This document shows, in pieces, positions 31,664 to 50,756 of a stretch of DNA of 64,000 nucleotides (position 1 is its first letter; each line of letters begins with the position of its first letter). The DNA comes from an uncultured bacterium (GTDB taxonomy: Bacteria; Babelota; Babeliae; Babelales; Babelaceae). The notes beneath the pieces were generated by a model. It was not told where the DNA came from. It saw only the letters and a program-made list of their open reading frames with translations, and did not search any database. Location: assembly GCA_963713855.1 (NCBI GenBank), contig OY970209.1, positions 1,440,001 to 1,504,000 of the forward strand, written 5' to 3'. Position numbers and translations under genes: made by a program.

Positions 31664-31714
31664 CCAGCCTTTAAGTGCTGGCGGCACCTAAGCGACGCAT
31701 TCGGAAATAGAGAG
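31664..31714 (+). repeat. R2: hairpin + right arm
   Basis: CCAGC-ctttaagt-GCTGG CGGCACCTAAGCGACGCATTCGGAAATAGAGAG. Confidence 0.9.
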
Positions 31715-31763
31715 ATTAAACCAAACTTACTTTTTAAAATAGGAGATCTCTTTAATTTCTTAC

Positions 31764-32828
31764 TCAATAAGTAATGGCAATAGTTTTGTCTTTACAATTT
31801 ATATGCACCAGCCCACCATTAGGAACAACTATTTGCGGGTCTGTATGACCAAAATTCAGATTAAAAACAACAGGAAGATTAGCGTTGTAATCCTGCAAAG
31901 CTTGCTGAATTGCTTCTCTCTGATTTGTTACATAGTGCCCTCTACCTTCAGGCGGCAACATATGCATAAACTGCGTCTTTGGTAACCCAACTAAGATAGC
32001 TTTCAATCGCCTAAGTATGTTACGCTCAGCAAGTGCCGCAACAAAGCGATAAATAAATCCAGAACTTGGCAACTCTTCTGATGTCTCAATATATAAGACA
32101 ATATCATCATGCTTTTCAAATTGGGGAAGATAATAGGGACTATTTACAGCAAGCTGTAAGTCCAAAACTTCTAAACAGCCTCCCCATAACCTACCCGATA
32201 GTACGCTATCATCACAATTATACCATTCCCAATTCGGAGTCCTTTCCATAGGACGCTTAATGAAAAGTTTACTTGTGTCACTCCAATCAAAATCATAATC
32301 AGTATATTCCGCGGGCTTATTTATATAACCAACTTCAGTATCAAACAAAGCCTTTTTTATAGAATTAATAGTGTAATCATGCATAGCACCTTGCATACCA
32401 AATTGCGACATAAGTGCACCGCCATAGTAAGAAATTAAGCCAAGATTCCATAATAAAACATGTATATTGGTTATATCACTATACCCTAGAAATATCTTAG
32501 GGTGAGCTAAAATAATTTTGCGATCTAAATAAGGCAAAATTCGAATACAATCACTTCCACCAGTTGTAGCAATTATTGCTTTAATTGAAGCATCTTCAAA
32601 AGCTGTATTGATGTCATCAGCACGTGCTTCTGGATTACGCGACAAATATTCTGGGCTTTTACGAGTAGTAGGCAATTCTATGGGAATAAGATTGAAAATA
32701 GTCTGCAAACGCCGAATACCAAGTTCGTAGACTTGGGGAAATAAGTAAGCACATGCTGCTGATGGAGATACAATAGCGACTTTGTCACCAGGTTGTAAAC
32801 GTGATGGTATAATAAAAGAGGCACTCAT
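31764..32828 (-). CDS. S66 peptidase (LD-carboxypeptidase / MccF-like)
   Basis: GDKVAIVSPS, ARADDIN, TGGSD, GYSDIT, GGCLE, YIETSE, FGHTDP. Confidence 0.93.
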   Translation of the reverse strand: MSASFIIPSRLQPGDKVAIVSPSAACAYLFPQVYELGIRRLQTIFNLIPIELPTTRKSPEYLSRNPEARADDINTAFEDASIKAIIATTGGSDCIRILPYLDRKIILAHPKIFLGYSDITNIHVLLWNLGLISYYGGALMSQFGMQGAMHDYTINSIKKALFDTEVGYINKPAEYTDYDFDWSDTSKLFIKRPMERTPNWEWYNCDDSVLSGRLWGGCLEVLDLQLAVNSPYYLPQFEKHDDIVLYIETSEELPSSGFIYRFVAALAERNILRRLKAILVGLPKTQFMHMLPPEGRGHYVTNQREAIQQALQDYNANLPVVFNLNFGHTDPQIVVPNGGLVHINCKDKTIAITY

Positions 32829-32830
32829 AG

Positions 32831-33334
32831 TTACAACTTTCTATTTCTTACCTTTCTCTTAAGCTTACCACGTTCTTTTTCTATAATTTTCTGATCTTGG
32901 GCATACCAAAGCATTTCTTCGGTATTTTTAAGTTTGCGCAAAAGCAATATGTTATGACCCCAAGCGAATCTAAAGACAGGAAGATTTTCAAAAAGTGGCA
33001 CAGCTTGTGCTACTTTTTCGTAAGCTAAGAAAAAAGCCTTCATTCTAAATATATTACTTCTTGAAAACCCTTCTATTCCAGGAAAAGCATTTTGTAAATC
33101 TTTGACAAGACGCTCAATGATCTGAGACCCCCAATGGCTAATCTCTTGTTTCTCTGTTATTGTTTTGCCTAAAGAGTAATGGAGTTTGATTAACTCTTTG
33201 TTTCCCCAAACAGCTGCTTTAATCTGAGACTCATAGATTTGTCTCTTCAGCGCTAATAGTATCTTAGTATAATCTTTAGCTAGAGCGAGAGTCGGCTTAG
33301 ATGTAGTTTCGCTTTTTTTCTTTATGCTTTTCAT
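32831..33334 (-). CDS. DUF1016/YhcG N-terminal domain only (truncated)
   Basis: QIKAAV..NKELIKL, WGSQIIERL..DL, GFSRSNIFRMKAF, WGHNILL; no nuclease half. Confidence 0.8.
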   Translation of the reverse strand: MKSIKKKSETTSKPTLALAKDYTKILLALKRQIYESQIKAAVWGNKELIKLHYSLGKTITEKQEISHWGSQIIERLVKDLQNAFPGIEGFSRSNIFRMKAFFLAYEKVAQAVPLFENLPVFRFAWGHNILLLRKLKNTEEMLWYAQDQKIIEKERGKLKRKVRNRKL

Positions 33335-33458
33335 TGAGTTCTCTCTACATAGTTCTTTAGCAAAAGCGATTTTGCTGGTAATTTTATCTTTTAATAATAA
33401 ACAAAAAACTTCCTAGAAAGGTGATAACCGCTTTTGAATGGTCTTATCGTAATAGATC

Positions 33459-33793
33459 TTGCAATTACCGTCAAACCTGGATATACCCACTTTTGATCTA
33501 ATAATCACTTCTTAATGAAGGATAAGCCAACGACCGTACTACTAACATATAGCGCGTATGAGCGTCGAGGAAGTACGTTCAAATTTGGCTCGCATAACTT
33601 CAAAGATGCAGATGCTTCAGCATCAGCGTCGAGCTCCTTCAAGCAGTAAGCTCATTCCTAGCCTAATGGTCCGAATGTCAGCTTCCATTTTAAGCGTCAA
33701 AGCTTACACGAAGCTTTTTCAATACTTTAAGCAAATTACACAACACACGATCAGCATAACTCATATGGCAAGGGCCATGAGGAAAACTATGTT
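33459..33793 (+). ncRNA. Promoter + conserved structured leader/ncRNA, copy A
   Basis: TTGCAA-17-TATACC; homologous to 51849-52158 with a covarying stem. Confidence 0.6.
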
Positions 33794-34031
33794 TTTGATT
33801 TATTTTTGAGTTCTGACGTAGAAGAGAAGCGTCATATTATTAAACTTGAGAGTGGAAGCTGAGTATGTCCTCTATGACGTTCAACCGCCATTCGATGTGA
33901 TCCTAAAATGTTCGGATCGTCAACTATGGCGGTACCTAAGCAACGCATTCAGGAATCGAGAAGCAAGCTTAAGGCAGTTACCAGCCTCTTTAAAAACTCT
34001 TGATACATTTTGCAGACAAAATGTCCTTTAA
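33794..34031 (+). pseudogene. 3' remnant of the recombinase (copy 2) with its attP-encoded tail
   Basis: LFLSSDVEEKRHIIKL...LYDVQPPFDVILKCSDRQLWRYLSNAFRNREASL... Confidence 0.9.
33901..33962 (+). repeat. R3: intact attP-like junction
   Basis: TCCTAAAATGTTCGGATCGTCAACTA-TG-GCGGTACCTAAGCAACGCATTCAGGA; 26-bp arms symmetric about TG. Confidence 0.92.
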
Positions 34032-34078
34032 AAGCTTAATCTATTGACTTTTTTTCCAATTTATTGGACAATTGCTCT

Positions 34079-34399
34079 ATGAGAGTAGTACTTAAAAAAG
34101 TTTACAAGCTTTATAAAACTCCTGAATATGGTGCTTGGCTTGAACAACAGACTTTTAAGTCCCAAGTACAGATTGCTGATCGCCTCTCTAAAATAGAATT
34201 AGAGGGACATTTCGGTAATCATAAATTTCTTGAAAATAATATTTGGGAGTTAAAGTGGGAAAATGGCAGAAGAATTTACTATGCCTATATTAGCTCTTTA
34301 GATATTTTAGTTTTACTTGGGGGAAATAAGAATGGGCAGAACAAAGACATTACACAAGCAAAAAGAATCTACAGAAAAAATGTTGAAACAGAAGATTAA
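34079..34399 (+). CDS. RelE/HigB-like addiction-module toxin
   Basis: WL..QIADRL..GHFG, IWELKW..GRRIYY, LLGGNKNGQNKDI. Confidence 0.88.
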   Translation: MRVVLKKVYKLYKTPEYGAWLEQQTFKSQVQIADRLSKIELEGHFGNHKFLENNIWELKWENGRRIYYAYISSLDILVLLGGNKNGQNKDITQAKRIYRKNVETED

Positions 34400-35025: not shown

Positions 35026-35076
35026 CCAGCTGTAAAAAGCTGGCGTTACCTAAGCGATGCATTCAGGAATAAAGAA
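35026..35076 (+). repeat. R4: hairpin + right arm
   Basis: CCAGCT-gtaaaa-AGCTGG CGTTACCTAAGCGATGCATTCAGGAATAAAGAA. Confidence 0.9.
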
Positions 35077-35158
35077 GTTAGACTAGATTTACGCTATCAT
35101 GCTATTCACGTCTCGTTATATAGATTTGTTAAATAACTAATATTTTGAAGCAAAGCGA

Positions 35159-36400
35159 TTAAGCAAGCCGTTTCATGTTCCACACAGCATACGCTTTTTC
35201 AATTTGTTGGCGAATTTGTGATGGTGGAATAAAAAGATAAGCATAGTTTTTTACCACTTCACCAGACTGACAAATGCCTTTTTGTTCCCATGCGTTGATA
35301 AGAGTTGCAATGTTAAATTCATGTGCAATGAGAAAGCCTATTATATAAAGGGCTCTCTCAACATGCGACGGATGTCGATCGGATAAACCTATTGTAATAA
35401 TACTTGGCTTTTCGTCTTCTTCTTCAGAAAGAAGTATGGTTATAAAGTTTAGTATGGCACTCATTTCTCCTAACTTTAAAAGTTGTCTCAATGCGAAAAG
35501 GTCAGCTCGTTGCTCAGTTGTTCGCTCATATAACGACAGAAGCTTGTTCTTTTCGCCTTCGGGCGGGATCCAAAGGAAACCGTAACGCTTAAGCACTCTT
35601 TGAGCTTCTGGCTCGGCTAATGCTTCCACTAATATTTTTCCGATCTTTGTATGACCGAAAGAAGGGAGTGTATGTATGCCAAGCTCTAGATAATCTTTAA
35701 TATCTTTTTGGTCGGATTTTACTAAAGGCTCGTTTAGGAAGCCCTGCATATCAACATCTCGAGTATCTCCGTGAACAATATGTCCGATCTCATGATAGAG
35801 GGTATACAGTCGAGAATCCAAATCAGGTGTTTTACACATGATTATATAGCTCTTCAAAGGTTTAGTGACTGCTTCACCAGCAAAGGATTTGGTTGTACTA
35901 AGGGCCCTTACTTCTTCTTGAAGACCCGCCAAACGTACGCCTTCGTCAACCAGTTTTTTCTGCATCGCTGTTGGTATTTCAACACCTTTTTCTTTAATAA
36001 GCAAATCAAGCTCAACTTCAGTTATTACTTCCTTTAGCCATGTTCTATCTATCCCATATATTGAAGAAGCTGGTACTAGTCCAAGAAGCTCTCTTAAAAA
36101 ATTGTAAGGATATAATAATATGTTCGGCCTCACACTAAGGTTAGGCTGAACAAGTCCATAATTAGCTCGATAAGCAACATTTTCTAGCCAATCAAAAAAC
36201 GTCAAGTCAGATTTGTCCAACTCTTTTAACAGCTCTTGTTTCCAACTCTTGTAATCTTTTCCTTCCACAGTGGGTTTTTCATTATAAACAAAGCTTCCTT
36301 TGTCAAAATCCATTACAAGGGTTATTCCACGAGGTGTTTTGCCATAACTGACTACAGTGAAGGCAAAAGATAAAATAATCGCTTGCATGATTTTTTTCAC
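35159..36400 (-). CDS. Exported M48-like zinc metalloprotease with one YNxLRE repeat
   Basis: YHEIGHIVH, TEQRADLFA, RHPSHVERALY. Confidence 0.8.
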   Translation of the reverse strand: MKKIMQAIILSFAFTVVSYGKTPRGITLVMDFDKGSFVYNEKPTVEGKDYKSWKQELLKELDKSDLTFFDWLENVAYRANYGLVQPNLSVRPNILLYPYNFLRELLGLVPASSIYGIDRTWLKEVITEVELDLLIKEKGVEIPTAMQKKLVDEGVRLAGLQEEVRALSTTKSFAGEAVTKPLKSYIIMCKTPDLDSRLYTLYHEIGHIVHGDTRDVDMQGFLNEPLVKSDQKDIKDYLELGIHTLPSFGHTKIGKILVEALAEPEAQRVLKRYGFLWIPPEGEKNKLLSLYERTTEQRADLFALRQLLKLGEMSAILNFITILLSEEEDEKPSIITIGLSDRHPSHVERALYIIGFLIAHEFNIATLINAWEQKGICQSGEVVKNYAYLFIPPSQIRQQIEKAYAVWNMKRLA

Positions 36401-36976: not shown

Positions 36977-37032
36977 CCAACTACTTTTTAAAGAGCTGGC
37001 GGTACCTAATTGACGCCTTCAGGAATAGGCAA
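36977..37032 (+). repeat. R5: hairpin + right arm
   Basis: CCAACT-actttttaaag-AGCTGG CGGTACCTAATTGACGCCTTCAGGAATAGGCAA. Confidence 0.88.
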
Positions 37033-37161
37033 GTAAGGCTTTTGTATATTTAAGCTGACTTTTAGTTTTACTAAAGAGAAACTTTGCTAAAGCATACTAT
37101 TATGCTCTTTCTACAGTAAATTATTGACATGCTATACTACACAGTGGTATGGTATAAGCAC

Positions 37162-37822: not shown

Positions 37823-37907
37823 ATGACGAATTACTGCCACAGAACAGTTGATTTATCCTAATCTCTTTCTTTACTTATTCTTTAAAGAGCTATTAAAAGC
37901 ATTGTTT

Positions 37908-37961
37908 GCCAGCTTTATTAAGCATTGGCGGCACCTAAGCGACGCATTCAGTAAAAGAGAA
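37908..37961 (+). repeat. R6: hairpin + right arm
   Basis: GCCAGCTT-tatt-AAGCATTGGC GGCACCTAAGCGACGCATTCAGTAAAAGAGAA. Confidence 0.9.
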
Positions 37962-38099
37962 ATAAGAATAATCTCTGTAAGACCCAATAAACTCAAATAA
38001 AGCCTCTTTTTTACGTTAAAGAACAAATGGTTGACTTTGACTTAGCTTATTTTAGAATAAGCACAAAGTTGATTATGTATTAAAAGTGTATCAAAACTT

Positions 38100-39020
38100 A
38101 TGAAAAATCTTCTAGCTTTTATTTATTTTTTAGCAGCAGCCTGCGCTCATGGAGAAGGCTTCTTAGCAGGAACTTTAGTTAAAACTCCAAATGGCTACAC
38201 TCCTATAGAAAAACTGCAAGAGAAAGATTTAGTAATTTGCTATGACTTTCAGGGAAACTGTGTCACAAGAAGGATAACAAAGACTTTTAAGCAATCTACC
38301 TCTGATTATATCCGCTTGTGGATTAACGATGAGTTAATTGAAGTTGCTTCTGATCACAAATTTTTTCTACCTCTTGAAAATCGCTGGATCGAAGCGAAAT
38401 GCGCTAACTCTAAGCATGTTTTTTTGAGTAGATGTATCGATTTAGTTCTAATTACTGCTGCTCAATATCTGACAAAACAAGCAGAAGTTTACGACATTAC
38501 GGTAGAAGAGTTTCATAACTTTTGTGTTTCCAATCAAGATGTTCATGTGCACAATATATCACCTGTAGTAGCAATTGGTATCTCTTGGGCCTTTGAAGGA
38601 CCTATTGTCTGGACAGCTTCTATCGGACTTGCCGGCTTAGGATGGGGAATTGGATACTTGCTTTCAAGTAATCGTCATGCGAGACCGCAAACTCACTTTA
38701 ATGCCGACGAATTTGGACAAAGATTTAACAACAAAAAGCATCACGAAGAAAGCTATCACACAACAGCAGCTAGTGGAGGATCTTCTGATGACTTTGATGA
38801 TGAAGATCCTTATAAAGAAGAACAACACAAAAGCAAGCAAATGAAAAAGCTTTCCGAAGGAGAAATTAAAAAATTGGAAGCTGCTGGAATTGATGTGCAC
38901 ACGCTTAAGCCAAATTCAAAATTTGATCTTTTCAAGAATCAGGCCGGTGAAATTTTCGTAAAACCCAAAGCAGGCAATGGTCCTGGCGACTCAACAGGCT
39001 TTAACATCAATAATTTTTAA
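38100..39020 (+). CDS. Hint-domain polymorphic toxin with Ntox33-like C-terminus
   Basis: Signal + Hint (GFLAGTLV..VYDITVEEFHNFCV..VHVHN) + hydrophobic linker + GIDVHTLK..FDLFK..IFVKPK.G.GPG..TG. Confidence 0.85.
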   Translation: MKNLLAFIYFLAAACAHGEGFLAGTLVKTPNGYTPIEKLQEKDLVICYDFQGNCVTRRITKTFKQSTSDYIRLWINDELIEVASDHKFFLPLENRWIEAKCANSKHVFLSRCIDLVLITAAQYLTKQAEVYDITVEEFHNFCVSNQDVHVHNISPVVAIGISWAFEGPIVWTASIGLAGLGWGIGYLLSSNRHARPQTHFNADEFGQRFNNKKHHEESYHTTAASGGSSDDFDDEDPYKEEQHKSKQMKKLSEGEIKKLEAAGIDVHTLKPNSKFDLFKNQAGEIFVKPKAGNGPGDSTGFNINNF

Positions 39021-39023
39021 GCT

Positions 39024-39422
39024 ATGAAATACGAATACAAAACCCTTGTCCGTCTTAAAATTTTGAGCACGACTCTTAGCCCCGAACAAATCACCTATGA
39101 ATTAGGAGTTGCTTGTGAACAATCTTGGAAGATTGGTGATAATCGAGCATCGAGTATTATTAAAGAAACAACCAATGGGTGGGTTCTTGGTTCAGGGTTT
39201 TCTCAATCAACACCCCTGGAAGAACAACTTGAGCCTTTCCTTAACCGTTTAACTACCTATTCTGCTAAAATTCGTCGATTATCTGTACACAATATTGTTG
39301 AGCTTTCTTGCATTGTCTACGCTGTGGCCCCTCCTGCTCTCTATTTTAATAAGAACGTTATCTCATCCATTGCTAAACTCGGGGCAAATTTTGACATCGA
39401 TTTGTACATTTTAGCAAAATAG
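39024..39422 (+). CDS. DUF4279-type immunity protein
   Basis: PEQITYELGV..WKIGD, W.L.S, LGANFDIDLY; 3 nt after the toxin stop. Confidence 0.85.
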   Translation: MKYEYKTLVRLKILSTTLSPEQITYELGVACEQSWKIGDNRASSIIKETTNGWVLGSGFSQSTPLEEQLEPFLNRLTTYSAKIRRLSVHNIVELSCIVYAVAPPALYFNKNVISSIAKLGANFDIDLYILAK

Positions 39423-39951: not shown

Positions 39952-40011
39952 GCCAGCTGAAAGCCTTTCGAAAGCTGGCGGTACCTAAGCGACGCATTCA
40001 GGAATAGGGAA
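39952..40011 (+). repeat. R7: hairpin + right arm (consensus copy)
   Basis: GCCAGCT-gaaagcctttcgaa-AGCTGGC GGTACCTAAGCGACGCATTCAGGAATAGGGAA. Confidence 0.93.
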
Positions 40012-40159
40012 ATTAAGTTTCATCTACAATATATTCAAAATTAACTTTTACCCTTCTAAAAGTTCTAAGCCGTTTAAGATCTTCTTTGCTTCATCCATTG
40101 AGGATAGATCATATATAGGATATATTAATAGTATAAGTGTTATATAAAGGAATAATCCT

Positions 40160-40766: not shown

Positions 40767-40796
40767 GAAAGGCTTTTTTAAGGCATAAGCTTCCAT

Positions 40797-40853
40797 GCCA
40801 GCTGCTTTAACGAAAGCTGGCGGTACTTAAGCGACGCATTCAGGAGCAAAGAA
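40797..40853 (+). repeat. R8: hairpin + right arm
   Basis: GCCAGCT-gctttaacgaa-AGCTGGC GGTACTTAAGCGACGCATTCAGGAGCAAAGAA. Confidence 0.92.
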
Positions 40854-40966
40854 ATTAGACTTAGGTTAAGTTTGAGCGATATAAAAGGGCTTTATTGCAA
40901 GCTGCGACGTTATGAACATCTATTCTTAGAAAGCAGAAAACTAGTTTGACCATCAATAATAATACA

Positions 40967-41539
40967 CTAAGCCGCAGGTGCAGCTGGAGCAGCATAGGGC
41001 AGCGCTGTCAAAATAGCTATTACCTTTAAATAATAGTAAATTTTCCTAAAAACTATAAGAGGAAGTCCCACAAAAATTACAATAACTGCGGCAATTACAT
41101 ACAGAATCGCACTAAAAATCATACTCCTTATAGCTGCATCGAACAGCAAGTAAAGACCTGCTATTATTGGCCTTTCTTCAAAAAACTTAAATAGCTGTTC
41201 TATGTCATCAACTTTAGCAACAGCATCAAGGATTGCGGTAGGAAGCCCCATAAAAATAAATATAGCTAAAGTATACTTTGCGCCTCCAATAGGAAGCGCC
41301 ATTGCATGAAGAATGATACCCTCTACAGCCGTTGCACATAACAAGAATAAATCTTGCATTTTTGGCGGCATGTCTTTAAAAAAATTAGATGAGCACTCTA
41401 ACCTACCATCATTATTGGCTATATCGGCCCGTTTACAAGCCTCAGGGTCAATTGTCGTAAAATGCATCAAATCTAGAGTAGGATCAGCCTCATAAGAAGA
41501 CTTTTTAATACGACATTTACAACCTAGACTAACACTCAA
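40967..41539 (-). CDS. Hypothetical membrane protein, probably 5'-truncated
   Basis: Hydrophobic C-terminal half; 5' end abuts a TA remnant at ~41551. Confidence 0.5.
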   Translation of the reverse strand: MSVSLGCKCRIKKSSYEADPTLDLMHFTTIDPEACKRADIANNDGRLECSSNFFKDMPPKMQDLFLLCATAVEGIILHAMALPIGGAKYTLAIFIFMGLPTAILDAVAKVDDIEQLFKFFEERPIIAGLYLLFDAAIRSMIFSAILYVIAAVIVIFVGLPLIVFRKIYYYLKVIAILTALPYAAPAAPAA

Positions 41540-41604
41540 TGGCTCTTCGAAAGCCGCGATATTGAAAAAGCAAAGCGATATTGGCTTGATTGCGAAAGGT
41601 TATT

Positions 41605-41907
41605 ATGAAAAGAAGATTTAGGGATTATCAAGAAAAACCTTACGCAGACTTAAAGGACTCAGAATTAGCTAGTGCCTATCTTAACGTAGCGCTTATGGAG
41701 GAAGATCCACGCGTCTTTTTATTTGCGTTAAAGAATGTTTATGAAGCTCAAGGCGGAGAAATGGCTGATCTTGCTCGAAAGACAAAATTGAGTCGCGAAA
41801 ATCTTTATCGCATACTTTCAGAAAAAGGCAATCCCAAGCTTAGTATCGTATCTTTGCTTAATGCTATAGGATTCTCACTCGCCGTGCAACCTCGTAAAAA
41901 TAAATAA
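41605..41907 (+). CDS. HTH antitoxin, near-identical paralog of 54113-54415, with only the last ~55 nt of its toxin upstream
   Basis: 41551-41907 aligns to 54059-54415. Confidence 0.9.
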   Translation: MKRRFRDYQEKPYADLKDSELASAYLNVALMEEDPRVFLFALKNVYEAQGGEMADLARKTKLSRENLYRILSEKGNPKLSIVSLLNAIGFSLAVQPRKNK

Positions 41908-42062
41908 TCTTAGAAAGAAAGTTTTAGTTTTCTCAAAAGGAAGCACTACCATGGCTAGCGTAAACAAAGATGCTGTTGGCTTAAATTTATTTGGGTCAAT
42001 CATGCTGAACTTGTCTTGGCTTAAAATTAGAGCAATTCTATAAGAAAATAATAGCCCATCTA

Positions 42063-42091
42063 TTGACCGACGGTCGGTCGCATGCTATAAG
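42063..42091 (+). promoter_or_regulatory. Sigma70 promoter overlapped by a probable TetR operator
   Basis: TTGACC-17-TATAAG with extended TG; perfect palindrome GACCGAC-G-GTCGGTC at 42065-42079. Confidence 0.8.
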
Positions 42092-42129
42092 ATGTCTATT
42101 ATCAATTATCAAAACAGTGGAAATTAAAT

Positions 42130-42795
42130 ATGGCTAGAATTGTAAAAAAGCCCACCGAACGAAGATCAGATATTGTGAATGCTGCTCGCTGCCTGTTACT
42201 GACAAAGGCATATGACAAAACAACCATGCAGGATGTAATGGACTATTTAGGTATTGCTAAAGGAACTATTTATCACTACTTTGAATCTAAGGAAGCACTT
42301 TTGGAAGCTGTCATAGCAAGCATCGTTGATACGCATATCGAACAAATGCAGGCCCTGATCAATGAGGCAACTGGAAATGCCTTAGTAAAAATTAAGATTC
42401 TGGTAGAAGCGAGCAATATGGCCAAAGATAACAACGTCATTTTTGATCATCTTCATCGGCCAGGCAGTCATGCCATACATATAAGTCTCCTTGCAGCAAC
42501 TTTGGTAAAATTGGCTCCCTTATATGAAAAACTGATTCAACAGGGCTGCGAAGAAGGCCTTTTTCAGACAGATACCCCGCTTGAATGCGCTGAGTTTATT
42601 CTTTCTGCTATTCAGTTTCTAACTGATGTGGGGATTTACCACTGGACACAAAAAGATTTAAGTCGTAGAGCACACGCTTTCCCCAAATTAATAGAGCAGC
42701 ATTTGAGAGCGCCGCCAGGTTCATTTTACTTTATGGCGACGCATATTAAACCCGCCGCTAAAAGTGATTTACAGCATACTTTAGTTGAAAGGTAA
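42130..42795 (+). CDS. TetR-family regulator
   Basis: YDKTTMQDVM..LGIAKGTIYHYFESKEALL. Confidence 0.93.
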   Translation: MARIVKKPTERRSDIVNAARCLLLTKAYDKTTMQDVMDYLGIAKGTIYHYFESKEALLEAVIASIVDTHIEQMQALINEATGNALVKIKILVEASNMAKDNNVIFDHLHRPGSHAIHISLLAATLVKLAPLYEKLIQQGCEEGLFQTDTPLECAEFILSAIQFLTDVGIYHWTQKDLSRRAHAFPKLIEQHLRAPPGSFYFMATHIKPAAKSDLQHTLVER

Positions 42796-42801
42796 TCTAT
42801 C

Positions 42802-44018
42802 GTGTCAAATTTTGCTGTTGATATACATGAATTATATAAATCATATGGGATTTTCATGTATTAAAAGGCGTTAACATGCACGTAGAGTCTGGTACAATCT
42901 TTGCGTTACTTGGCCCAAATGGGGCGGGAAAAACAACAATGCTGCGTATTTTAATGACACTTTTAAAGCCTGATTCAGGTTCTATCTTAATAAATGGTAT
43001 TGATACAATTAAACATCCAAATCAGGTTAAACAGGTAATAGGAATAGTTGGTCAGTGTGCATCAGTTGATGGCCAATTAACTGGTTTAGAAAATCTGCGA
43101 ATGATCGATAGGTTGCATCATTTAAGCATAGAAGAGGCTAATAATAATGCACATAGACCAACATCAGATGATGTATTTAAGACCCTGACAAAAGCAAATG
43201 GAAGGGTAATTATGACTGTGTATAGAAACTCTATCAAAAAATTAAGCTGGTTCTTAAGTGATGCATTTGTACTTGCTAAGCGAAATTTATTACATATATC
43301 ATGTGATCCTGATCAAATCTCTGGGTTACTCGTTTTACCAATTATGTACACCCTATTATTTCGTTATTTGTTTGGCGGAGCTATAGATAAGATGACATTC
43401 GCTGATGTGGGGACTGGAGATTATATTACTTATATTATGGCTCGGGCGTTTGTTATAAATATTTTATTTGCCTCAATAATCACCTGTGTAGGAGTTGCAA
43501 ATGATTTGACAAAGGGTGTTGTAGATCGCTTTCGCTCACTACCAATTAGCCCGTCATCGGTGATTTTGAGTTATCTTCTTGCCAGTGGTCAGTCAATGAT
43601 TATTATTGCAATAATGACTATTCTGGGACTCATTATGGGATTTCAGCCAACGACGATTCCAATCAAATGGTTAAGTGCTTTGGAAATGTTAGTACTTATG
43701 ACATTAGCAATCTCATGCCTTATGATATTGATTGGTGTATCATCTAAAAATGTTGAATCAGCACAACAATTTGGCGGTCTACTCGTTTTGTCATTATCAA
43801 TGATTAGCTCTGCTCTTGTTCCAACCCAGACAATGCCATCTTTTTTACGTATAATTGCACAAAATCAACCATTTACTCATGCAATTGAAGCAATACGTTC
43901 ATTGCTTTCTGGAACCGATATTGGTAATCATCTTTTTATGTCTTTGATCTGGTTTATAGGTATTATCATCATTACTTTCACCTTGAGCACATATTTATTT
44001 TCTAGCTCGAGTGAATGA
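42802..44018 (+). pseudogene. DrrAB-like ABC exporter: internally deleted ATPase running into ABC-2 permease
   Basis: Walker A GPNGAGKTT without signature or Walker B, jumping to the RPT..DDVF C-terminal motif; frameshift near 42850; six-TM permease follows. Confidence 0.78.
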
Positions 44019-44040
44019 GAACCGGATAAAGGGCTATGAA

Positions 44041-46356
44041 ATGTGGATATCAATACTAAAAAAAGATTTTCTCAAAAACAAAGGCATCACTTCAGCATTA
44101 GTCATTTTCATCTCAGTATCAGCATTACTTATTGCTTGTGGAACAAGCATGATCTCTGAATTATATAATTCTTTAAACTACCTATTTGCTAAATCTAATG
44201 TTCCTCATTTTCTTGTAAAGCATTCTGGAAAAATCAATCAAGCAGAGATTGAGCAGTGGTCATTGAATAATAGTCTAGTAAAGAACGAACAGACAACTGA
44301 GATGCTTAGTATCGATAGATCAAACATTTATTTAGGCTATAGCAACAGGTCTGAGTATGATAGCGTAATGAACATTGATTTTGTTAAGCAGAATTCTTCT
44401 ATGGATATACTGCTTAACAAAAAAGGGCAAGTCATTCGGTTATCAAAAGGGGAAGTTGCAGTTCCACTCTATTATATGCAATTAAAAAACATGAAAATTG
44501 GCGACAGGGTTAGAGTTGCCAATAAAGATTTTGATATGAGTTTTACTGTTGTTGATTTCGTTCGAGATGCTTTGATGAACCCATCATTAGTGCATTCAAA
44601 GCGCTTCGTAGTAAATGATGATGATTTTGAAATCCTTAAAAAGAATATTGGAGAAATTGAATACTTTATCGAATTTCGCCTTGCTGATATAAGTAAGCTA
44701 AATGAATTTAGAAATGCATATCAGGCATCCAATTTGCCCCAAAATGGACCAATGCTTGATTTTAACTTGATAAAACTTTTAAATGCTTTATCAGATGGTC
44801 TTGTGGCTGCAATAATATTGCTGATAAGTATATTGCTTACTATTATTGCTGTTCTTTGCTTTAGATTTACTATTCTTACGACTCTCCAAGAGGATTATAA
44901 AGAAATTGGCGTAATGAAAGCAATTGGCATTTTGCAACAGGATATCCAAAGAATATATCTGGCCAAATATATCTTAATAGCTGCTATAGGTACAGTGCTT
45001 GGATATTTGGCCTCTTTATTTTTTAATCAGCTGTTTATGGAGAATATCATTATCTATTTAGGGATTGCGCCAAAAACTATTTTAAACCACGTAAGTCCTT
45101 TGATTGCAGTTATCATAATATTCTTGATAATAATATCCTCTTGTGGGGTGGTACTTCGAAAAATAAATAAAATATCACCCATAGAAGCCTTGCGTGGTGG
45201 AATTATCGGGGAAGCACAGAAACTCAAAAGTAATATGTCTCTGTACAAGAATAGATTATTACCTGTTGATATTTTTCTGGGAGCACAAGATGTATATCAA
45301 CGATTAAGAAGCTATATGGTTTTACTCCTAATTTTTTTCTTTTGCTCATTTATGATCATTGTTCCTATAAATTTTCTTAATACTATTAAATCGCCTAATT
45401 TTATTACATACATGGGGATAGGCCGTTGTGATATCAGAATAGATTTGCAACGGACAGATAACATTCCTGAAAGATTTAATAATCTGATTACATATCTCAA
45501 AAATGACCCGGATGTTGCACAGTTTTCCCCGTTAGTTACCAGTCGGATTAAGACGATAAATGATGGTGTCCAGCAAAATATTAATGTTGAAACAGGGAAT
45601 TTTTCGGGATTTCCACTAGAGTATTTGGCAGGCTCAGCTCCAAAGCATATTAATGAAATTGCTCTTTCCGTTCTTAACAGTAAAGAATTTAGAAAGCACG
45701 TTGGAGATAGCTTGCGATTAATAATCGATAAACAAGAAAAAAACATGAAGATTACCGGTATTTATCAGGATATAACTAATGGTGGGCTAACAGCAAAAGC
45801 GGTATTGCCATTTAATCATGAAACAGCGTTATGGTATATAATTAACGTAAATGTAAAACAGGGCGTTAACGTACAAAAAAAAATTGATGAGTATGCAAAA
45901 ATTGCTAATCCAGCCAGGATTAGTGACTTGGCAAAATATCTATCTCAAACCTTAGGGAATACTATCAACCAATTAACGCTTTTCACAATCTCTGCTATCC
46001 TCATCGCCCTGTTTATTTCACTATTAATTACCTATTTATTTCTAAAATTGATACTTGCAAATGAATCCTCTCAAATAGCTATTATGAGAGCTATTGGTTT
46101 TACATTAAACGATATTCGACTGCAATATGTAACGAGAGTATTGCTAGTGCTTGTCCTTGGAATAATTTTCGGGACAATTATTGCTAACACAGTTGGTCAA
46201 AGCATAATTAATTTATTGTGGTCATTTTTAGGTGCTTCGAAGGTTAAATTCGTTGTATTTCCTATACAGACTTATGTTATTATCCCTCTCGTAGTAATGT
46301 TTGTTGTAGCTATTACTGCATTAATGAGCATGTTGTCCATACATAAAGCTAAATAA
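44041..46356 (+). CDS. FtsX/MacB-like ABC permease
   Basis: Two FtsX halves: EDYKEIGVMKAIG and ESSQIAIMRAIGF. Confidence 0.9.
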   Translation: MWISILKKDFLKNKGITSALVIFISVSALLIACGTSMISELYNSLNYLFAKSNVPHFLVKHSGKINQAEIEQWSLNNSLVKNEQTTEMLSIDRSNIYLGYSNRSEYDSVMNIDFVKQNSSMDILLNKKGQVIRLSKGEVAVPLYYMQLKNMKIGDRVRVANKDFDMSFTVVDFVRDALMNPSLVHSKRFVVNDDDFEILKKNIGEIEYFIEFRLADISKLNEFRNAYQASNLPQNGPMLDFNLIKLLNALSDGLVAAIILLISILLTIIAVLCFRFTILTTLQEDYKEIGVMKAIGILQQDIQRIYLAKYILIAAIGTVLGYLASLFFNQLFMENIIIYLGIAPKTILNHVSPLIAVIIIFLIIISSCGVVLRKINKISPIEALRGGIIGEAQKLKSNMSLYKNRLLPVDIFLGAQDVYQRLRSYMVLLLIFFFCSFMIIVPINFLNTIKSPNFITYMGIGRCDIRIDLQRTDNIPERFNNLITYLKNDPDVAQFSPLVTSRIKTINDGVQQNINVETGNFSGFPLEYLAGSAPKHINEIALSVLNSKEFRKHVGDSLRLIIDKQEKNMKITGIYQDITNGGLTAKAVLPFNHETALWYIINVNVKQGVNVQKKIDEYAKIANPARISDLAKYLSQTLGNTINQLTLFTISAILIALFISLLITYLFLKLILANESSQIAIMRAIGFTLNDIRLQYVTRVLLVLVLGIIFGTIIANTVGQSIINLLWSFLGASKVKFVVFPIQTYVIIPLVVMFVVAITALMSMLSIHKAK

Positions 46357-46389
46357 TTGAAGTAATTCAGGAGTAATAGGATAATTTTT

Positions 46390-47154
46390 ATGGAAAACAT
46401 ATTAGAAGCTAAAGCATTAAATAAATCTTACATTATAAATAACAAACACTATGACGTCCTCAAAGATATAAATTTGTACATTAAAAAAGGTGAATTTATA
46501 TCGGTGATGGGTCGCTCTGGTTCTGGAAAATCTACATTACTTTACACAGTCAGTGGCATGGATAGAATGACATCCGGCAGCGTAATCTTTAATGGGCAAG
46601 ATCTATCACGGCTTGCAGAAAAAGAACTTTCTAAGATACGCCTTAATAAAATGGGATTTATATTTCAGCAGTTTAATCTTTTAAAAAATCTTTCTATTTT
46701 TGATAATATTATCCTTACAGCTTACTTGAGGCGAAAAGTAAATCGCACAGAGATTAATAACCGCGCTCTTGAATTGATGAAAAAAACAGGTATTGAAGAA
46801 CTTGCCGATAATGACATTACCCAGGCTTCAGGTGGTCAGCTACAACGAGTAGGAATTTGTCGGGCTCTTATCAATAATCCTGAGATTATTTTTGCAGACG
46901 AACCTACGGGGGCGTTGAATTCAACGGCTGCAGATGGAATCATGGAAATTTTAACCGAGATCAACTCGTCTGGGACGACAATTTTATTGGTGACACATGA
47001 TCTTAAAGTCGCATCGAAAACAGAGCGAGTTCTTTTTGTGTTGGACGGCAACATTGTTGCCGAACAAAAGCTTGGCAAATACATAAAAGAAAATATTGAT
47101 GTTAAAGTGAGAGAAGAAAAACTATCAAAATGGTTAATAGAACTGGGCTTTTAA
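46390..47154 (+). CDS. LolD-like ABC ATPase
   Basis: GRSGSGKST, SGGQLQRV, FADEPTGALN, VTHD. Confidence 0.95.
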   Translation: MENILEAKALNKSYIINNKHYDVLKDINLYIKKGEFISVMGRSGSGKSTLLYTVSGMDRMTSGSVIFNGQDLSRLAEKELSKIRLNKMGFIFQQFNLLKNLSIFDNIILTAYLRRKVNRTEINNRALELMKKTGIEELADNDITQASGGQLQRVGICRALINNPEIIFADEPTGALNSTAADGIMEILTEINSSGTTILLVTHDLKVASKTERVLFVLDGNIVAEQKLGKYIKENIDVKVREEKLSKWLIELGF

Positions 47155-47289
47155 TGTGGCTTAAAAACATTGAGATTTCTTATTTTTCATAAAAATAAGA
47201 AGGATTTTGTTATTCTTATGTAACTTATGGAGATAGCGTGGTTCATCGCAAATTACAGCCTATTTTGCCCACGGGATACGAGCTCCGTG

Positions 47290-47828
47290 ATGAAGCTCAT
47301 AGTAATATACGATTCTTGCGTTCTTTATCCAGCACCATTGAGGGATCTTCTTATGCGCCTTGCACTTACGGACCTTTATCAGGCAAAGTGGACCCACAAG
47401 ATTCATGAAGAATGGATTTATAACCTTTTAAAAAAGCGCCCTGATCTAACGGAAGAACGACAAAAGAAAACATGAACCTGTACGTTAGAGATTGTCTAGT
47501 TAGAAGGCTATGAGAAATTAATCGATAAGCTAACATTACCTGATCCATGCGATCGGCACATTTTAGCCGCAGCCATCGATACGAAAGCGCATTTAATTAT
47601 CACTTTTAATCTGCGAGACTGTTCCCCTTAATATTACGGCTCATTATGGGGTCCAAGCGATATATCCTGATGTGTTTCTTGCATCCTTGCTAAGTAAAGA
47701 TATAGATACAGTTATCCAAACAATGCGAGAAACAAGGCTCAGTTTAAAGAAGACAGCAAAAAATCCTGAATACTTAGCTACTTCCTAAAACTGTTGCTTA
47801 TGTGCGCAAATACATAAACTTCATTTAA
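47290..47828 (+). pseudogene. PIN-domain toxin, multiple frameshifts
   Basis: YDSCVLYPAPLRDLLMRLA..W...IHEEW; later frames give LVxGYE, LPDP.DRHILAAAI, IITFNLRD, PDVFL. Confidence 0.82.
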
Positions 47829-47880
47829 TGACGCAATGCCTTAATAGGATAATATTGCATAATCAGGCTCGCTAAATGAT

Positions 47881-47934
47881 GCCAGTTCATTAAGGTGGTG
47901 GCGGTACCTAGTTGACGCATTCAGGAATGAAAAA
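47881..47934 (+). repeat. R9: hairpin + right arm
   Basis: GCCA-gttcattaaggtgg-TGGC GGTACCTAGTTGACGCATTCAGGAATGAAAAA. Confidence 0.88.
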
Positions 47935-48008
47935 GTACGCTTACCTATTTTTCATAAACACAACACAATAGGCAAAAATATTTTATTTAGCATAGTTTCT
48001 AAACAAAC

Positions 48009-50285
48009 TTAACGCCCCAACCAATATCCTAGCTTTGTAATGATTTTGTATACCTTACTTAGAGATGACATGCTTTCTCTGTAAAGAGATTCTTGCTGAC
48101 GAATCCACTTAAAATCAAGCTGTTTTAATGACCATATATGAGGGCTTTTTGCAGTCTCATCTAGAAGTAGATTATAGCAACAAAGAGCTTCTTGCTCATG
48201 ATAGTTTGATAACGTGCTAGAAACTTCTTGTGCTTCAAATTCATCAAGGTGAAAGTTAAGCTGCTTAATTAATTCCCTTATTGTAAGCATAGTAATATGA
48301 GTATCATTATAATATTCATACCAGGCTGCATAATAAGTTTCCTGCATCCAAAGAAAATTAATCTCGGCAAAGGAAACTGCTGGAGATTGACCCAAAAGCT
48401 CTCTAAGCAGATTGTAATTATAAAGAGCTTGTAATTCATAATCAGCAGGCTTAGAGATAACACGCTCCATTTCGCGTTGAGCAATATAGTAAAAGTGCTT
48501 TATAGATGAAAAAAGCATATTTACTTGCGCGTAAAGAGTTGTTAATCCCTCTCTCTGCCAGCTGGCCTCAACATGCATTTTCCACTGTTTGAAAGATTCT
48601 GTTGTTGCATCTTGTTGCCATATTTGCTGCGCTTTTGAAAAAACTTCATTATTGACAGCATCTTTAGATGATGCAGCAAAAGCGATGCTTGGTTTGTGTG
48701 CTTGAATGTCTTTCTTTGAATACCATTCATCAAATGCTTGATTAATATCTAGACCCTTATCCACCAAGAAACCTATCATATAGAGTGCTCTCTCAAAGTT
48801 TGAAGGATGCTCATCTTCATTGCCATACGCAGTGATATAATTTGATAAAGCATAAAGTTCAATAGTTGCTAAAATAGGATCTAACTTGCCAAGCTTCAGA
48901 AGCTTATCACATGCAAAGAGGTCTGCTTGCTGCTCATACTCTCGCGCAAGAGTTGTTTTCTTGTATTCGTAATCATTCAGAGGAAGCACCCATAATGGCA
49001 ACATACTTGATACTATACTGTTAATAGTTTTTCCCAAGCGTGTTTTATTGGTAAAAGCTTTTTTTCCTATATTGATAAATTTGCTAATCTTCTCTCTCCC
49101 TTGGATAAAATCATCGCTGGATAGCAGTAAATCAATTTCTTCTAGAGAAATAGTGTTATTCCGCATTTCAGGAGTTTTATCATGCTTAAGCATGATGTGT
49201 CCGAGTTCATGGTAAAATACTTTATATTGGTGATTATGCTCATTCGCCAATCCTAAAACAATATAAAAGTTTATTCCATTACCATAGGCATTTGTTCCGC
49301 CTTTCCCTTTACGTACAGCTAAAACAATACTATCATCTAGATGAAATGCTTCTCGTGCTTCTGTCAAAATATTTTCTAAAATATCTGGTGCTAATTCATA
49401 ATGATATTTTTCAAGAAATTCGTTAAGTAAAGCTTCTTTTCTTATACTTTCAATCCAAGGGTAATCTATTTCGGTAATGGTTTTAGCATTGTCCAAATGT
49501 AACATTTCTCGCAACAAATTATAGCAATAAAGAAATCTCTTTTTAAAAAAAAGATTGTTTGAATCCGCTCTAAATTCTTTTAAAGCATTTTCTATTTTTA
49601 TTAAAATATCAACTATCTTGCAAGCAAATGACTCTATTTTTCTTTTTTTCCACTCCTGCTTGATTTCGTCATTCCATGTTACATAGACATGATCGTAAAG
49701 CCAATCGCTATCTATAGTGCTTAAAAAAGTTCGACCAAGCGGAAATTCACTTAGTTCGTTTAGAAGATTATAATTAAAAAGAGCTTGTCGTTTATGGGCA
49801 CCTATGGGTTCATTATTAGAGTTTAAAAAATGATTAAGTGACGTTACCAATTTGTTTTTTTGCTCTTTTTTAGTATCTATCCCTTGTTTTTCCCATATCT
49901 GTTTTTTCTCTTCTTTCCATAGAGGGTATACACAGTCATTAATCCACGTATCATCTATTTGATCTAAGGTGTGTATTAAAGGAAAAGATAAACTTTCTCT
50001 TAAGAAGTTGTATGTTACTAGCACCGCTCCTTGATAAAAGCTATTATTAAGATTTTGCCGTAGAGCGCTTAAATCGTGATCAAAGCGGTAAATCAAGTCC
50101 AGAATACGGTCTTCAGGTGGCTGCTTTGACCAAAAATACTCTAGAGCTTGTTTCCAGTCACTGTAAGAAAATTTTGATGTCTCTGTATATGGTATTGTGT
50201 TTTCTGCTTTTAAGAAAGAGGGTAACGTATATAAGCCAATGGAAAACAAAAGCGCTATTCCAACTATAAATTCCTTATAATTCAC
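48009..50285 (-). CDS. Exported M48-like zinc metalloprotease flanked by five YNxLRE repeats
   Basis: YHELGHIML, YEQQADLFA, EHPSNFERALY; paralog of 35159-36400. Confidence 0.82.
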   Translation of the reverse strand: MNYKEFIVGIALLFSIGLYTLPSFLKAENTIPYTETSKFSYSDWKQALEYFWSKQPPEDRILDLIYRFDHDLSALRQNLNNSFYQGAVLVTYNFLRESLSFPLIHTLDQIDDTWINDCVYPLWKEEKKQIWEKQGIDTKKEQKNKLVTSLNHFLNSNNEPIGAHKRQALFNYNLLNELSEFPLGRTFLSTIDSDWLYDHVYVTWNDEIKQEWKKRKIESFACKIVDILIKIENALKEFRADSNNLFFKKRFLYCYNLLREMLHLDNAKTITEIDYPWIESIRKEALLNEFLEKYHYELAPDILENILTEAREAFHLDDSIVLAVRKGKGGTNAYGNGINFYIVLGLANEHNHQYKVFYHELGHIMLKHDKTPEMRNNTISLEEIDLLLSSDDFIQGREKISKFINIGKKAFTNKTRLGKTINSIVSSMLPLWVLPLNDYEYKKTTLAREYEQQADLFACDKLLKLGKLDPILATIELYALSNYITAYGNEDEHPSNFERALYMIGFLVDKGLDINQAFDEWYSKKDIQAHKPSIAFAASSKDAVNNEVFSKAQQIWQQDATTESFKQWKMHVEASWQREGLTTLYAQVNMLFSSIKHFYYIAQREMERVISKPADYELQALYNYNLLRELLGQSPAVSFAEINFLWMQETYYAAWYEYYNDTHITMLTIRELIKQLNFHLDEFEAQEVSSTLSNYHEQEALCCYNLLLDETAKSPHIWSLKQLDFKWIRQQESLYRESMSSLSKVYKIITKLGYWLGR

Positions 50286-50431
50286 TTTTTATCTCCATAA
50301 AGAATTACATTCTTTATTATACCATCAAAAATAAAAACCTGGAATCAAGAATTAGCAAAGCTTTTGTCAATCTATACACTGGAGTTTCATACACAATAAT
50401 TTGAACTCGTAATTTAAGGATAAATCCTAAT

Positions 50432-50476
50432 ACAGCTTGATCTTAAGAACTGGCAGTACAAGGCGACGCTATTCAG
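50432..50476 (+). repeat. R10: degenerate copy
   Basis: ACAGC-ttgatcttaaga-ACTGG CAGTACAAGGCGACGCTATTCAG. Confidence 0.6.
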
Positions 50477-50678
50477 TTTTCTTTAGCGCTTTGAGATTTA
50501 TGTAATCATGTATTAATGTTTCAGTTAATTTCTGCTTTTTATATAAGCAATATTCAAGGCTATCTGCAATTGTTGACAATATATTACTTAGGCATCCAAG
50601 CTCGCTTTCTATGCTTGCTTCACGATAATATAAGTATATCCCATGACGATTTTTGATTATTTCTACAGGTTCGTTCAT
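50469..50678 (-). CDS. Small hypothetical protein (69 aa), sole content of a 270-bp cassette
   Basis: ATG at 50678 with AGAGGAG RBS; lies between R10 and R11. Confidence 0.55.
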   Translation of the reverse strand: MNEPVEIIKNRHGIYLYYREASIESELGCLSNILSTIADSLEYCLYKKQKLTETLIHDYINLKALKKTE

Positions 50679-50703
50679 TAACTTGCTCCTCTTATTTAGC
50701 AAT

Positions 50704-50756
50704 GCCAGCCTTTTAAGCGCTAGCGGCATCTGGTTGACGCATTCAGGAACAGAGTG
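50704..50756 (+). repeat. R11: hairpin + right arm; left end of the recombinase-bearing element (TG mutated to TA)
   Basis: GCCAGC-cttttaagc-GCTAGC GGCATCTGGTTGACGCATTCAGGAACAGAGTG. Confidence 0.85.

Follow-up and report, generated by a model that had tools for sequence, protein, structure and literature searches.

The locus described here raises the question of why a series of repeated sites beside one tRNA gene should carry two quite different left arms, the end of a recombinase gene at some sites and a short hairpin at others. It lies in the genome of an uncultured bacterium of the Babelaceae (GTDB lineage Babelota, Babeliae, Babelales; assembly GCA_963713855.1), of which we analysed a stretch of 64,000 nucleotides, from here on the window (contig OY970209.1, positions 1,440,001 to 1,504,000 of the forward strand). 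The answer that we favour, and hold to be probable, is that the hairpins are copies of a tRNA-trailer hairpin of this bacterial lineage, carried along in a fossil stack of cassettes of a large serine recombinase (LSR). On balance, the window appears to preserve a fossil accretion island that was built by an LSR family at the 3' end of a tRNA-Asp gene and extends for about 29 kb to the left of it.

Sites with two kinds of left arm

The right arm that these sites share (P') occurs in ten copies, all on the + strand and within 30158-50765, which start at 30158 (R1), 31679 (R2), 33927 (R3), 35041 (R4), 36997 (R5), 37926 (R6), 39976 (R7), 40818 (R8), 47899 and 50721; the tRNA-Asp gene at 56882 forms an eleventh site. 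Its consensus is TGGCGGTACCTAAGCGACGCATTCAGGAAT (30-45 nt), with 15 further bases conserved more weakly. The copies are recognized by nhmmer with E values from 8e-15 to 5e-10, the following match reaching only 0.94, and a BLAST search of the 1.52 Mb genome with the right arm gave nine matches, all nine within the island. In the scheme that we propose, each site would consist of a core, TGGC-GG, between a left arm, P or H, and a right arm, P' or B', where P would be roughly the final 45 nt of the recombinase gene, P' a conserved 'tail' and B' the body of the tRNA gene. H would be the chromosomal B arm, in which three to seven trailer bases plus TGGC fold back on the (N)GCCA end of the tRNA.

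At 30158, at 33927 and at the tRNA-Asp junction (56882) the left arm is the 3' end of the recombinase gene (repeat D6), present with the last 100-280 nt of that gene; at the eight other sites it is a hairpin, the 3' strand of which merges into the TGG of the core. This division, recombinase end at R1 and R3 against hairpin, had been drawn in an earlier note written from the letters of the sequence alone, and it stands. The note had counted nine hairpin sites, of which we recover eight, profile and pattern searches of 40863-47879 having revealed no ninth; with it goes the second of two 17-nt distances from CCAGC to TG, and the other distances (15, 15, 20, 17, 23, 20, 19 and 16 nt) are reproduced. 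The stem (G)CCAGC-loop-GCTGG(C) is exact at four of the eight sites and mismatched or bulged at the other four. As the note had said, the loops are AT-rich and variable in length; they are neither unrelated nor freely spaced, since their 3' parts share TTTAAG.GC or CGAAAGC at a fixed distance from the core, next to which 8-10 bases are conserved at fixed spacing. R7, R8 and the tRNA-proximal copy of the sister species G001 have ...CGAAAGCTGGCGG in common, and R2, site 50721 and one G001 site ...AAG.GCT.GCGG.

Perfect stems ending in the core measure 5 bp at R2, 6 bp at R4, 3 bp at R5, 4 bp at R6, 7 bp at both R7 and R8, and 4 bp at both 47899 and 50721. Stems of at least 5 bp, found here at four of eight sites, occur at 8.0% of 2123 other genomic TGGCG sites (binomial P 0.002). 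The exact motif CCAGC...GCTGG is present five times in the whole window, where 0.54 matches are expected, and at 19 loci genome-wide, four of them in the island, that is, within 2% of the genome. These figures speak against chance matches or generic terminators, an explanation that we regard as extremely improbable. One hairpin (31663-31682, - strand) does fit the simple pattern of an intrinsic terminator, in which a T run comes after a G+C-rich stem, and four of the eight stems are weak; the other seven hairpins are not terminator-like, and homologous hairpins exist in other genomes. A generic terminator was thus rejected as the identity of the hairpin, on these seven and on the enrichment of the exact motif in the island. 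The earlier note had reckoned with a terminator that is common also where no right arm follows: the hairpin is indeed common without a right arm, as shown below, and only its nature as a generic terminator was not borne out. Terminator-like sites of any kind number 18 in 20 kb, against 13.1 +/- 3.4 in shuffles. Rfam, searched over 27000-58000, returned no match with E <0.1 besides three tRNAs; four weak matches (E 0.13-0.87), far below the gathering thresholds, fell neither on a hairpin nor on a P' arm.

The hairpin at the 3' ends of tRNA genes

One of two proposals in the earlier note had been that the hairpin acts in RNA, as a tRNA trailer that pairs with the GCCA end, and one of its suggested checks was to look for relatives with a hairpin directly after tRNA-Asp. 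Such relatives were found, in G001, where the hairpin directly abuts tRNA-Asp, and at locus L059. Among 29 tRNA-Asp loci in the family, four have an LSR within 1.5 kb and 25 have none; perfect CCA-anchored stems measure at least 6 bp at eight of these LSR-free loci, 5 bp at seven and less at ten. At the eight loci with the longest stems the 5' strand starts in the tRNA's own GCCA or CCA, and the two strands covary (GCCATCT/AGATGGC, CCATGT/ACATGG, GCCAGTC/GACTGGC, GCCATCC/GGATGGC, CCGCCATTTTAC/GTAAAATGGCGG).

This pairing extends to other tRNAs. In 215 distinct trailers, a count that takes in recombinase-end trailers, stems of at least 6 bp occur 44 times (15.9 expected from shuffles) and stems of at least 7 bp 23 times (3.9 expected). 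A covariation test was anchored on CT[TA]C-N3'-TGG, chosen without use of pairing; of 22 trailers with this anchor, 14 have full complementarity between N3' and the three bases that follow CCA (N3), by five different triplet pairs, whereas in 5000 permutations the mean was 3.5 and the highest count 9. The 14 complementary trailers follow tRNA-Lys, Asn, Val, Arg and Asp. Read on the tRNA strand, many of these elements consist of CCA-N3, a pyrimidine internal loop of TTC or TAC, a short inner hairpin, again TTC or TAC, and N3'-TGG(C), often with a second (N)GCCA behind it. A two-tier element of this sort, its outer stem formed with the CCA end, for which there is no Rfam family, was seen after tRNA-Lys, Val, Asn, Asp, Arg and Ser genes in Babeliales, sometimes in tandem, at loci that include L038, L041, L047, L062, L064, L071, L072 and L084.

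The window hairpins are, in our estimation, rather likely to be short and partly degenerate relatives of this tRNA 3'-trailer element. The same hairpin is also fused to P' at the far end of single integrated elements elsewhere (L047:748, L059:5296), and hairpin plus P' with an Arg-type TGGTGT core is found at L066:3862 and L105:1546. Because the same hairpin stands after tRNAs and at the attL of single elements, it would represent the chromosomal (B) arm, and hairpin-core-P' would be an attL-type junction. The recombinase end, too, offers a CCA-pairing partner about 34 nt downstream of the tRNA; the inverted repeat that it forms with the core over this distance is CCGCCAT...34 nt...ATGGCGG at 33927 and GCCATT...AATGGC at several other loci. 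This fits a need to keep a trailer after integration; codon constraints (K-P-F-D) alone could also produce the pairing.

The stem that is kept while the loop varies in length, its covariation across relatives and a weak 'replication protein' match in the last element of the island (phrog_702) could be taken to favour the other proposal of the earlier note, in which the hairpin, like an integron attC site, is recognized as folded single-stranded DNA delivered by rolling-circle replication, so that structure matters and spacing does not. Here we part with the note and consider this mechanism very improbable. The enzyme has three ordinary LSR domains and no tyrosine recombinase family was detected among the 32 open reading frames scanned (27.5-56.7 kb); conservation at a fixed spacing, as expected of a double-stranded half-site, marks the 8-10 core-adjacent bases; and the same hairpin follows tRNA genes that have no element nearby. 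The putative replication protein has a weak PHROG match (phrog_702, E 0.0038; E 0.00073 for its G001 homologue) and matched no Pfam or NCBIfam family, so that no rolling-circle mode is shown by it. The trailer proposal, in contrast, fits best with regard to pairing, adjacency to tRNAs and covariation, and it is only for action in RNA that folding energies, considered below, gave no support.

A recombinase whose reading frame crosses its attachment site

The LSR pseudogene next to the tRNA-Asp gene (55436-56890, + strand) consists of three frame pieces with one internal TGA, and its pieces at 55436-56740 match Pfam Resolvase (PF00239), Recombinase (PF07508) and Zn_ribbon_recom (PF13408). There is no intact recombinase in this genome, this copy being broken and the two others 3' fragments, which suggests that the island is now inactive; an intact relative of 486 amino acids adjoins tRNA-Glu in G001. 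Of 8000 candidates scored, 3184 proteins are relatives of this enzyme at E<=1e-20, and the names of several refer to Babeliales, Babeliaceae or Dependentiae. Across 79 loci of species-representative genomes, 57 of the 81 C-terminal ends of the recombinase lie directly against a tRNA 3' end (Glu 15, Asp 11, Arg 11, Gln 7, Asn 13), and at 74 of the 81 the reverse complement of CCA, TGG, stands as the final Trp codon. The reading frame of the recombinase thus crosses the attachment site. NCBIfam scores of 75 bits for CcrB, 71.7 for CcrA and 32.6 for CcrC, with cut-offs of 900, 700 and 900, show that it is not a Ccr orthologue. A limited literature search on Dependentiae found no published account of this LSR family, of the way it targets tRNAs or of the trailer element, and the family is very large and apparently undescribed. 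It was also seen in genomes labelled Patescibacteria or CPR (L086, L088, L111), with attL sites that have no TGG, as if the native tRNA-Asn there had no encoded CCA.

The P and P' arms are mutually inverted, CGTCAACTA-TGGCGGTACC-TAGTTGACG (sites 33927 and 47899), in a register that recurs in L047, and T-W-GTTGAC occupies positions 6-13 from the central GG in both; with the tRNA site they share TGGCGG only. From this symmetry P and P' appear, with fair probability, to be the two halves of a dyad-symmetric attP, whose central dinucleotide would be GG (bases 5-6 of TGGCGG).

Since the frame crosses the attachment site, the C-terminus of the recombinase depends on the state of the element. At the tRNA it reads ...DRQLWRG-stop, straight through the core, and across a right arm WRYLSDAFRNREI.... 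Integration beside a tRNA was seen to cut the recombinase at W-R-G or W-R-P, or to let it read about 15 codons into the tRNA (..RPQGDSNP..); an attP-type junction instead adds the conserved tail ..LVDAFRNREIEF.. (examples are window 55436-56890 and L032:5830-7290). Translation of 33 distinct P' sites from this and other genomes gives W-x-x-L-[VS]-D-[ATM]-F-R-N-[RGK]-[EK]-I-x-[FL], variation being lowest at the second positions of codons (0.166, against 0.294 and 0.294) and Leu and Arg codon families being exchanged. Part of this sample had been picked by a DNA pattern, which inflates the conservation of codons 5-10, the span of the pattern, and leaves codons 11-15 as the one unbiased indication that the coding sequence is constrained. 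LSR proteins with such tails do exist in the database.

A possible course of accretion

With these arms, H-core-P' would be attL, P-core-tRNA attR, P-core-P' the junction of tandem elements and H-core-tRNA, present in relatives, attB. The stem would be conserved because the trailer hairpin works next to the tRNA, most likely in the precursor RNA, and the core-adjacent bases (CGAAAGC or GCGAAG-NN-TGGC) probably constitute a double-stranded B half-site. A P'-cargo-H unit placed between recombinase end and tRNA would restore both the trailer hairpin and attB; a full element could then integrate at the restored attB, and such alternation together with deletions of internal junctions might have produced the order now observed.

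The left arms of R1-R4 alternate as P, H, P, H, and beyond this alternation there are seven hairpin junctions in a row. In G001, in the orientation of the window, the order is recombinase end, TGGCGG, a TPR gene, a small hairpin, a degenerate right arm, an M48-like gene, a hairpin (CAGC-10 nt-GCTG), TGGCGG and tRNA-Asp. The order of recombinase tail, cargo, hairpin and tRNA given in the earlier note is thereby confirmed; as P-core-P'-cargo-H-core-tRNA it is found in G001 and in L059, in both ending directly on tRNA-Asp. A full element can be much reduced, as was seen in L035 of G001 (4806-4999, reverse-complement coordinates), where the recombinase gene has shrunk to about 190 nt, made up of its first 110 nt and an 84-nt near-3' piece, and lies 480 nt left of a hairpin/right-arm junction.

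Recombinase-less P'-cargo-H units are present in three genomes, those of the window (R1-R2, R3-R4), G001 and L059. Their recurrence at tRNA-Asp in two genomes besides this one makes a cassette mechanism like that of SCC elements or integrons possible. In its integron-like form, P'-cargo-H units would be true mobile cassettes, circles with a hybrid, attL-type junction that a resident enzyme inserts in trans beside the end of its own gene and excises again, with H as the cassette's own recombination arm. To our knowledge, recombination between attL-type and attP-type sites is not known for characterized LSRs, and this counts against the idea, as do cassette genes in both orientations, a genome with no intact recombinase, a long array confined to this genome among the sequences searched (79 genome loci and 28 metagenome stretches) and assembled sequence in which no circle, empty site or shuffled order is seen. 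Besides the recurrent recombinase-less units, its favourable points are a cargo typical of cassette arrays (toxin-antitoxin pairs, PIN, PT-HINT/Ntox33 with DUF4279), the retention of the tail reading frame in the P' of recombinase-less cassettes, and the direct order of P-core-P' and H-core-tRNA, which by the site logic of LSRs would be an attP/attB pair resolvable by the enzyme alone. Moreover, some serine recombinases (TndX) are described in PMC5704250 as integrating and excising with no need of a directionality factor. Altogether we regard such mobile cassettes as unlikely.

The corresponding general claim, that Babeliales have a serine-recombinase counterpart of the integron, is in our view quite unlikely: here P'-cargo-hairpin cassettes would be inserted between recombinase end and tRNA, each bringing a portable attB half and replacement trailer as well as a new C-terminal tail for the recombinase. 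If it were true, the landing site and the tRNA trailer would be renewed after every capture, and the recombinase C-terminus would report whether something, and what, is inserted and might set the direction of the reaction with no separate directionality factor.

Weighing the trailer reading

Several observations weigh against our preferred reading of the hairpins as carried copies of a tRNA trailer. At 10 of the 25 LSR-free tRNA-Asp loci there is no good stem. In this genome, pairing of a trailer hairpin with the CCA is seen at one of 38 tRNAs only, tRNA-Asn (56977-57004, - strand: GCCATAC-14 nt-GTATGGC, its 5' strand starting in the tRNA's own GCCA and with no P' arm attached); the hairpin after tRNA-Gln is of a CTTCGC type and does not involve the CCA. 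Asn and Gln are both LSR target types in relatives, which, together with the second (N)GCCA after H, implies that H could belong to the recombinase system itself. Four of the eight window hairpins are degenerate, with mismatches or bulges, although their minimum-energy folds nonetheless close on the core. When 47 elements are compared by folding energy, neither strand is preferred, 17 favouring the tRNA strand and 26 the opposite one (P 0.14), which gives no support to a role in RNA on the tRNA strand; counter to this result, R5 and 50721 each have a single mismatch that becomes a G.U pair on the tRNA strand but not on the other (-8.1 versus -3.0 and -8.2 versus -3.9 kcal/mol). Relaxed tblastn found no LSR remnant left of any hairpin arm, no long array was found elsewhere in the 79 genome loci or 28 metagenome stretches, and no circular or excised form or empty site was seen in the assembled sequence. 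Finally, neither classical attP x attB integration nor tandem accretion would add to a single B arm, so that eight H arms need an extra step, which may have been the import of H-bearing circles or the use of non-canonical site pairs.

As to arrays in relatives, the iterated P' profile, applied to the 79 genome loci, gave mostly one site each, another subtype (..TLRTFNW..) lying outside the profile; a 19-nt P' pattern yielded the 28 metagenome stretches, and among these the profile recognized P' in 18 loci. Of these only L170 has two P' sites (3569 and 4311), 742 nt apart, with Asn-type cores and no hairpins, a pair that looks like a very small cassette-like unit in another organism. A generic tRNA trailer across the genome of the window was considered and rejected, only Asn among its 38 tRNAs fitting.

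The Asn and Gln trailers bear on a further explanation, namely that H stems from the recombinase system, as its footprint or a miniature insert, and is no host tRNA feature; it would be a short dyad flanked by direct (N)GCCA repeats that is left at tRNA ends, sometimes in tandem. It would account for trailer units that end in TGGC followed by AGGCCA, GCGCCA or CTCCGCCA, some of them tandem (L121, L141, L144, L059), for the occurrence of each G001 hairpin after TGGCGGAG, and for H-like trailers in the own genome only at Asn and partly at Gln. It does not account for H after tRNA-Lys, Val and Ser, which are used by none of the 57 tRNA-abutting recombinase ends, in a sample biased to operons holding a target tRNA, nor for flanking repeats that are not exact copies of the local tRNA end, and we consider it distinctly unlikely. 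We retain the trailer reading, under which H pre-exists at the tRNA and is carried into the island.

Units, cargo and decay of the island

The old left edge of the array is likely marked by a TGGCGGAG pseudo-core at 27353-27360 (+ strand), right of the M48-like gene 26472-27245, whose G001 orthologue sits in a cassette beside tRNA-Asp; the array may once have reached about 27.3 kb. A degenerate right-arm-like sequence (19 of 30 matches) lies at 28061-28106, left of R1. All sites are on the + strand. R1 (30158-30202) is an attP-type junction of P arm, core TGGCG (one G missing) and P' arm; its P arm is a 3' fragment of the recombinase gene (29885-30163, + strand, residues about 392-485) with a six-frame match of E 1.8e-24, one internal TAA and repeats D5 and D6. 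R3 (33927-33971), again P arm, core and P' arm and attP-type, has as its P arm a 3' remnant of 34 recombinase codons (33831-33932, + strand) whose CCGCCAT is complementary to the core ATGGCGG.

The hairpin sites begin with R2 (31664-31723; CCAGC-8 nt-GCTGG, core TGGCGG at 31679) and R4 (35026-35085; CCAGCT-6 nt-AGCTGG, core TGGCGT at 35041). They continue with R5 (36977-37041), a degenerate hairpin CCAAC...GCTGG whose mismatch is G.U on the - strand, with its core at 36997, and R6 (37908-37970), a bulged hairpin GCCAGCTT...AAGCATTGGC with its core at 37926. R7 (39952-40020; GCCAGCT-14 nt-AGCTGGC, core at 39976) has a P' arm identical to the consensus, and R8 (40797-40862) carries GCCAGCT-11 nt-AGCTGGC and a core at 40818. 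Site 47899 (47879-47943) has a weak hairpin GCCA...TGGC, and site 50721 (50704-50765) GCCAGCC...GCGCTAGC, with a mismatch that is G.U on the - strand, and a core TAGCGG; in each of these sites a P' arm follows.

Site 50721 is the attL of the last and most complete element, and a near-identical site is present in G001. This unit (50721-56887, + strand) is a classical integrated element that comprises the P' arm, an unknown gene, the replication-protein-like gene (52921-53760), a Gp49/HI1420 toxin-antitoxin pair, a DUF7674 gene and the recombinase pseudogene, and its attR lies at the tRNA-Asp(GTC) gene (56882-56958, - strand), where the 3' end CCGCCA reads on the + strand as the core TGGCGG and the recombinase end adjoins at the left.

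From the first site to the tRNA, the distances between sites are 1.5, 2.2, 1.1, 2.0, 0.9, 2.1, 0.8, 7.1, 2.8 and 6.2 kb. Pfam families in these units include PT-HINT (in one case with Ntox33, followed by a DUF4279 gene), LD-carboxypeptidase, DUF1016, Gp49/HI1420 pairs, HTH, PIN and a TetR regulator with ABC transporter genes, encoded on both strands. The DUF4279 gene after the Ntox33 protein is probably its immunity gene. The two PT-HINT proteins, polymorphic-toxin-like and with signal-peptide-like N-termini, are encoded in separate cassettes at 30830-31450 and 38100-39422.

Some units seem to be decayed full elements. That between R2 and R3 keeps pieces of the backbone (D7, D14) along with the 34 recombinase codons, that between R8 and 47899 retains an antitoxin gene with 94% identity to the one in the last element (D2), and the 0.9 kb HTH cassette shows an 80% match to the left end of the full element in G001.

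A secreted-looking protein family, encoded at 23938-26403, 26472-27245, 35159-36400 and 48009-50285, has repeated Y-N-L-L-R-E-L-L...W motifs. An HExxH-like core of the M48 type is present in three of these four; the 821-aa protein of 23938-26403 shares the repeats only. Among the M48-like proteins, one matches Peptidase_M48 at a borderline level; a larger one, with no match in Pfam, is similar to it. These paralogues are 23-27% identical, lie in and beside the island, and include the 257-aa member whose orthologue forms the cassette beside tRNA-Asp in G001. Recent segmental duplication next to hairpins was rejected as their origin, on account of this low identity.

Implications

Overall, we rate the system as a serine-recombinase accretion island in which a structured tRNA trailer serves as the chromosomal arm and the recombinase gene spans attP. 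It would mean that the CCA ends of tRNAs are used, in an uncultured and host-dependent phylum, by an apparently undescribed serine recombinase family whose own frame crosses the attachment site. A second undescribed feature is the structured element of this lineage that shows covariation and forms pairs with the 3' ends of several tRNAs. Should the recombinase-less hairpin units be mobile, they would represent cassette capture built on another enzyme than that of the integron, and would offer natural serine integrases with tRNA-gene targets for genome engineering. Should they not be mobile, the window would still be a worked example of how four combinations of att arms can be read from the sequence of a decayed accretion island.

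Comparison with known systems

In staphylococci, SCC and SCCmec elements are inserted at the 3' end of rlmH by the LSRs CcrAB or CcrC and form arrays of units with short direct repeats, in which recombinase-less units lie beside recombinase-bearing ones. The island resembles them in an LSR that acts at the 3' end of a conserved gene, in arrays of repeat-bounded units and in units with and without a recombinase. In contrast to SCC, the target here is the CCA end of a tRNA, the open reading frame of the recombinase runs across attP and the chromosomal arm is a structured tRNA trailer; also, with 72-75 bits against cut-offs of 700-900, the enzyme is no Ccr orthologue.

For genomic islands at tRNA genes, tyrosine integrases are usually held responsible (PMC4383910). 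For integrative and conjugative or mobilizable elements (ICEs, IMEs), PMC5704250 describes an accretion in which integration is followed by decay that keeps the att sites (in CIMEs) and by new insertion at the target-proximal att site. The decayed elements and P-core-P' junctions of the window are of this kind. ICE/IME-CIME systems mostly have tyrosine integrases, with an attR that holds the whole target, whereas here the chromosomal arm H is repeated, which accretion alone does not explain.

With the attC sites of integrons, a more distant parallel, the hairpin sites have in common a palindrome, imperfect and variable in length, at one cassette end, a stem that includes the crossover region, and a cargo rich in toxin-antitoxin genes. 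They differ in that there is no IntI tyrosine recombinase, genes have both orientations, the core-adjacent spacing is fixed and the hairpin pre-exists at tRNA genes; what is present here is a structured site, with no support for its recognition as a single strand.

Finally, integration-dependent truncation is known for genes that contain attP, such as the SSV1 integrase gene and the repressor gene of mycobacteriophage BPs. As in these cases, integration in the island alters the C-terminus of a protein of the element. In contrast to them, it is the serine recombinase itself that is affected here, and its tail can come from a neighbouring cassette.

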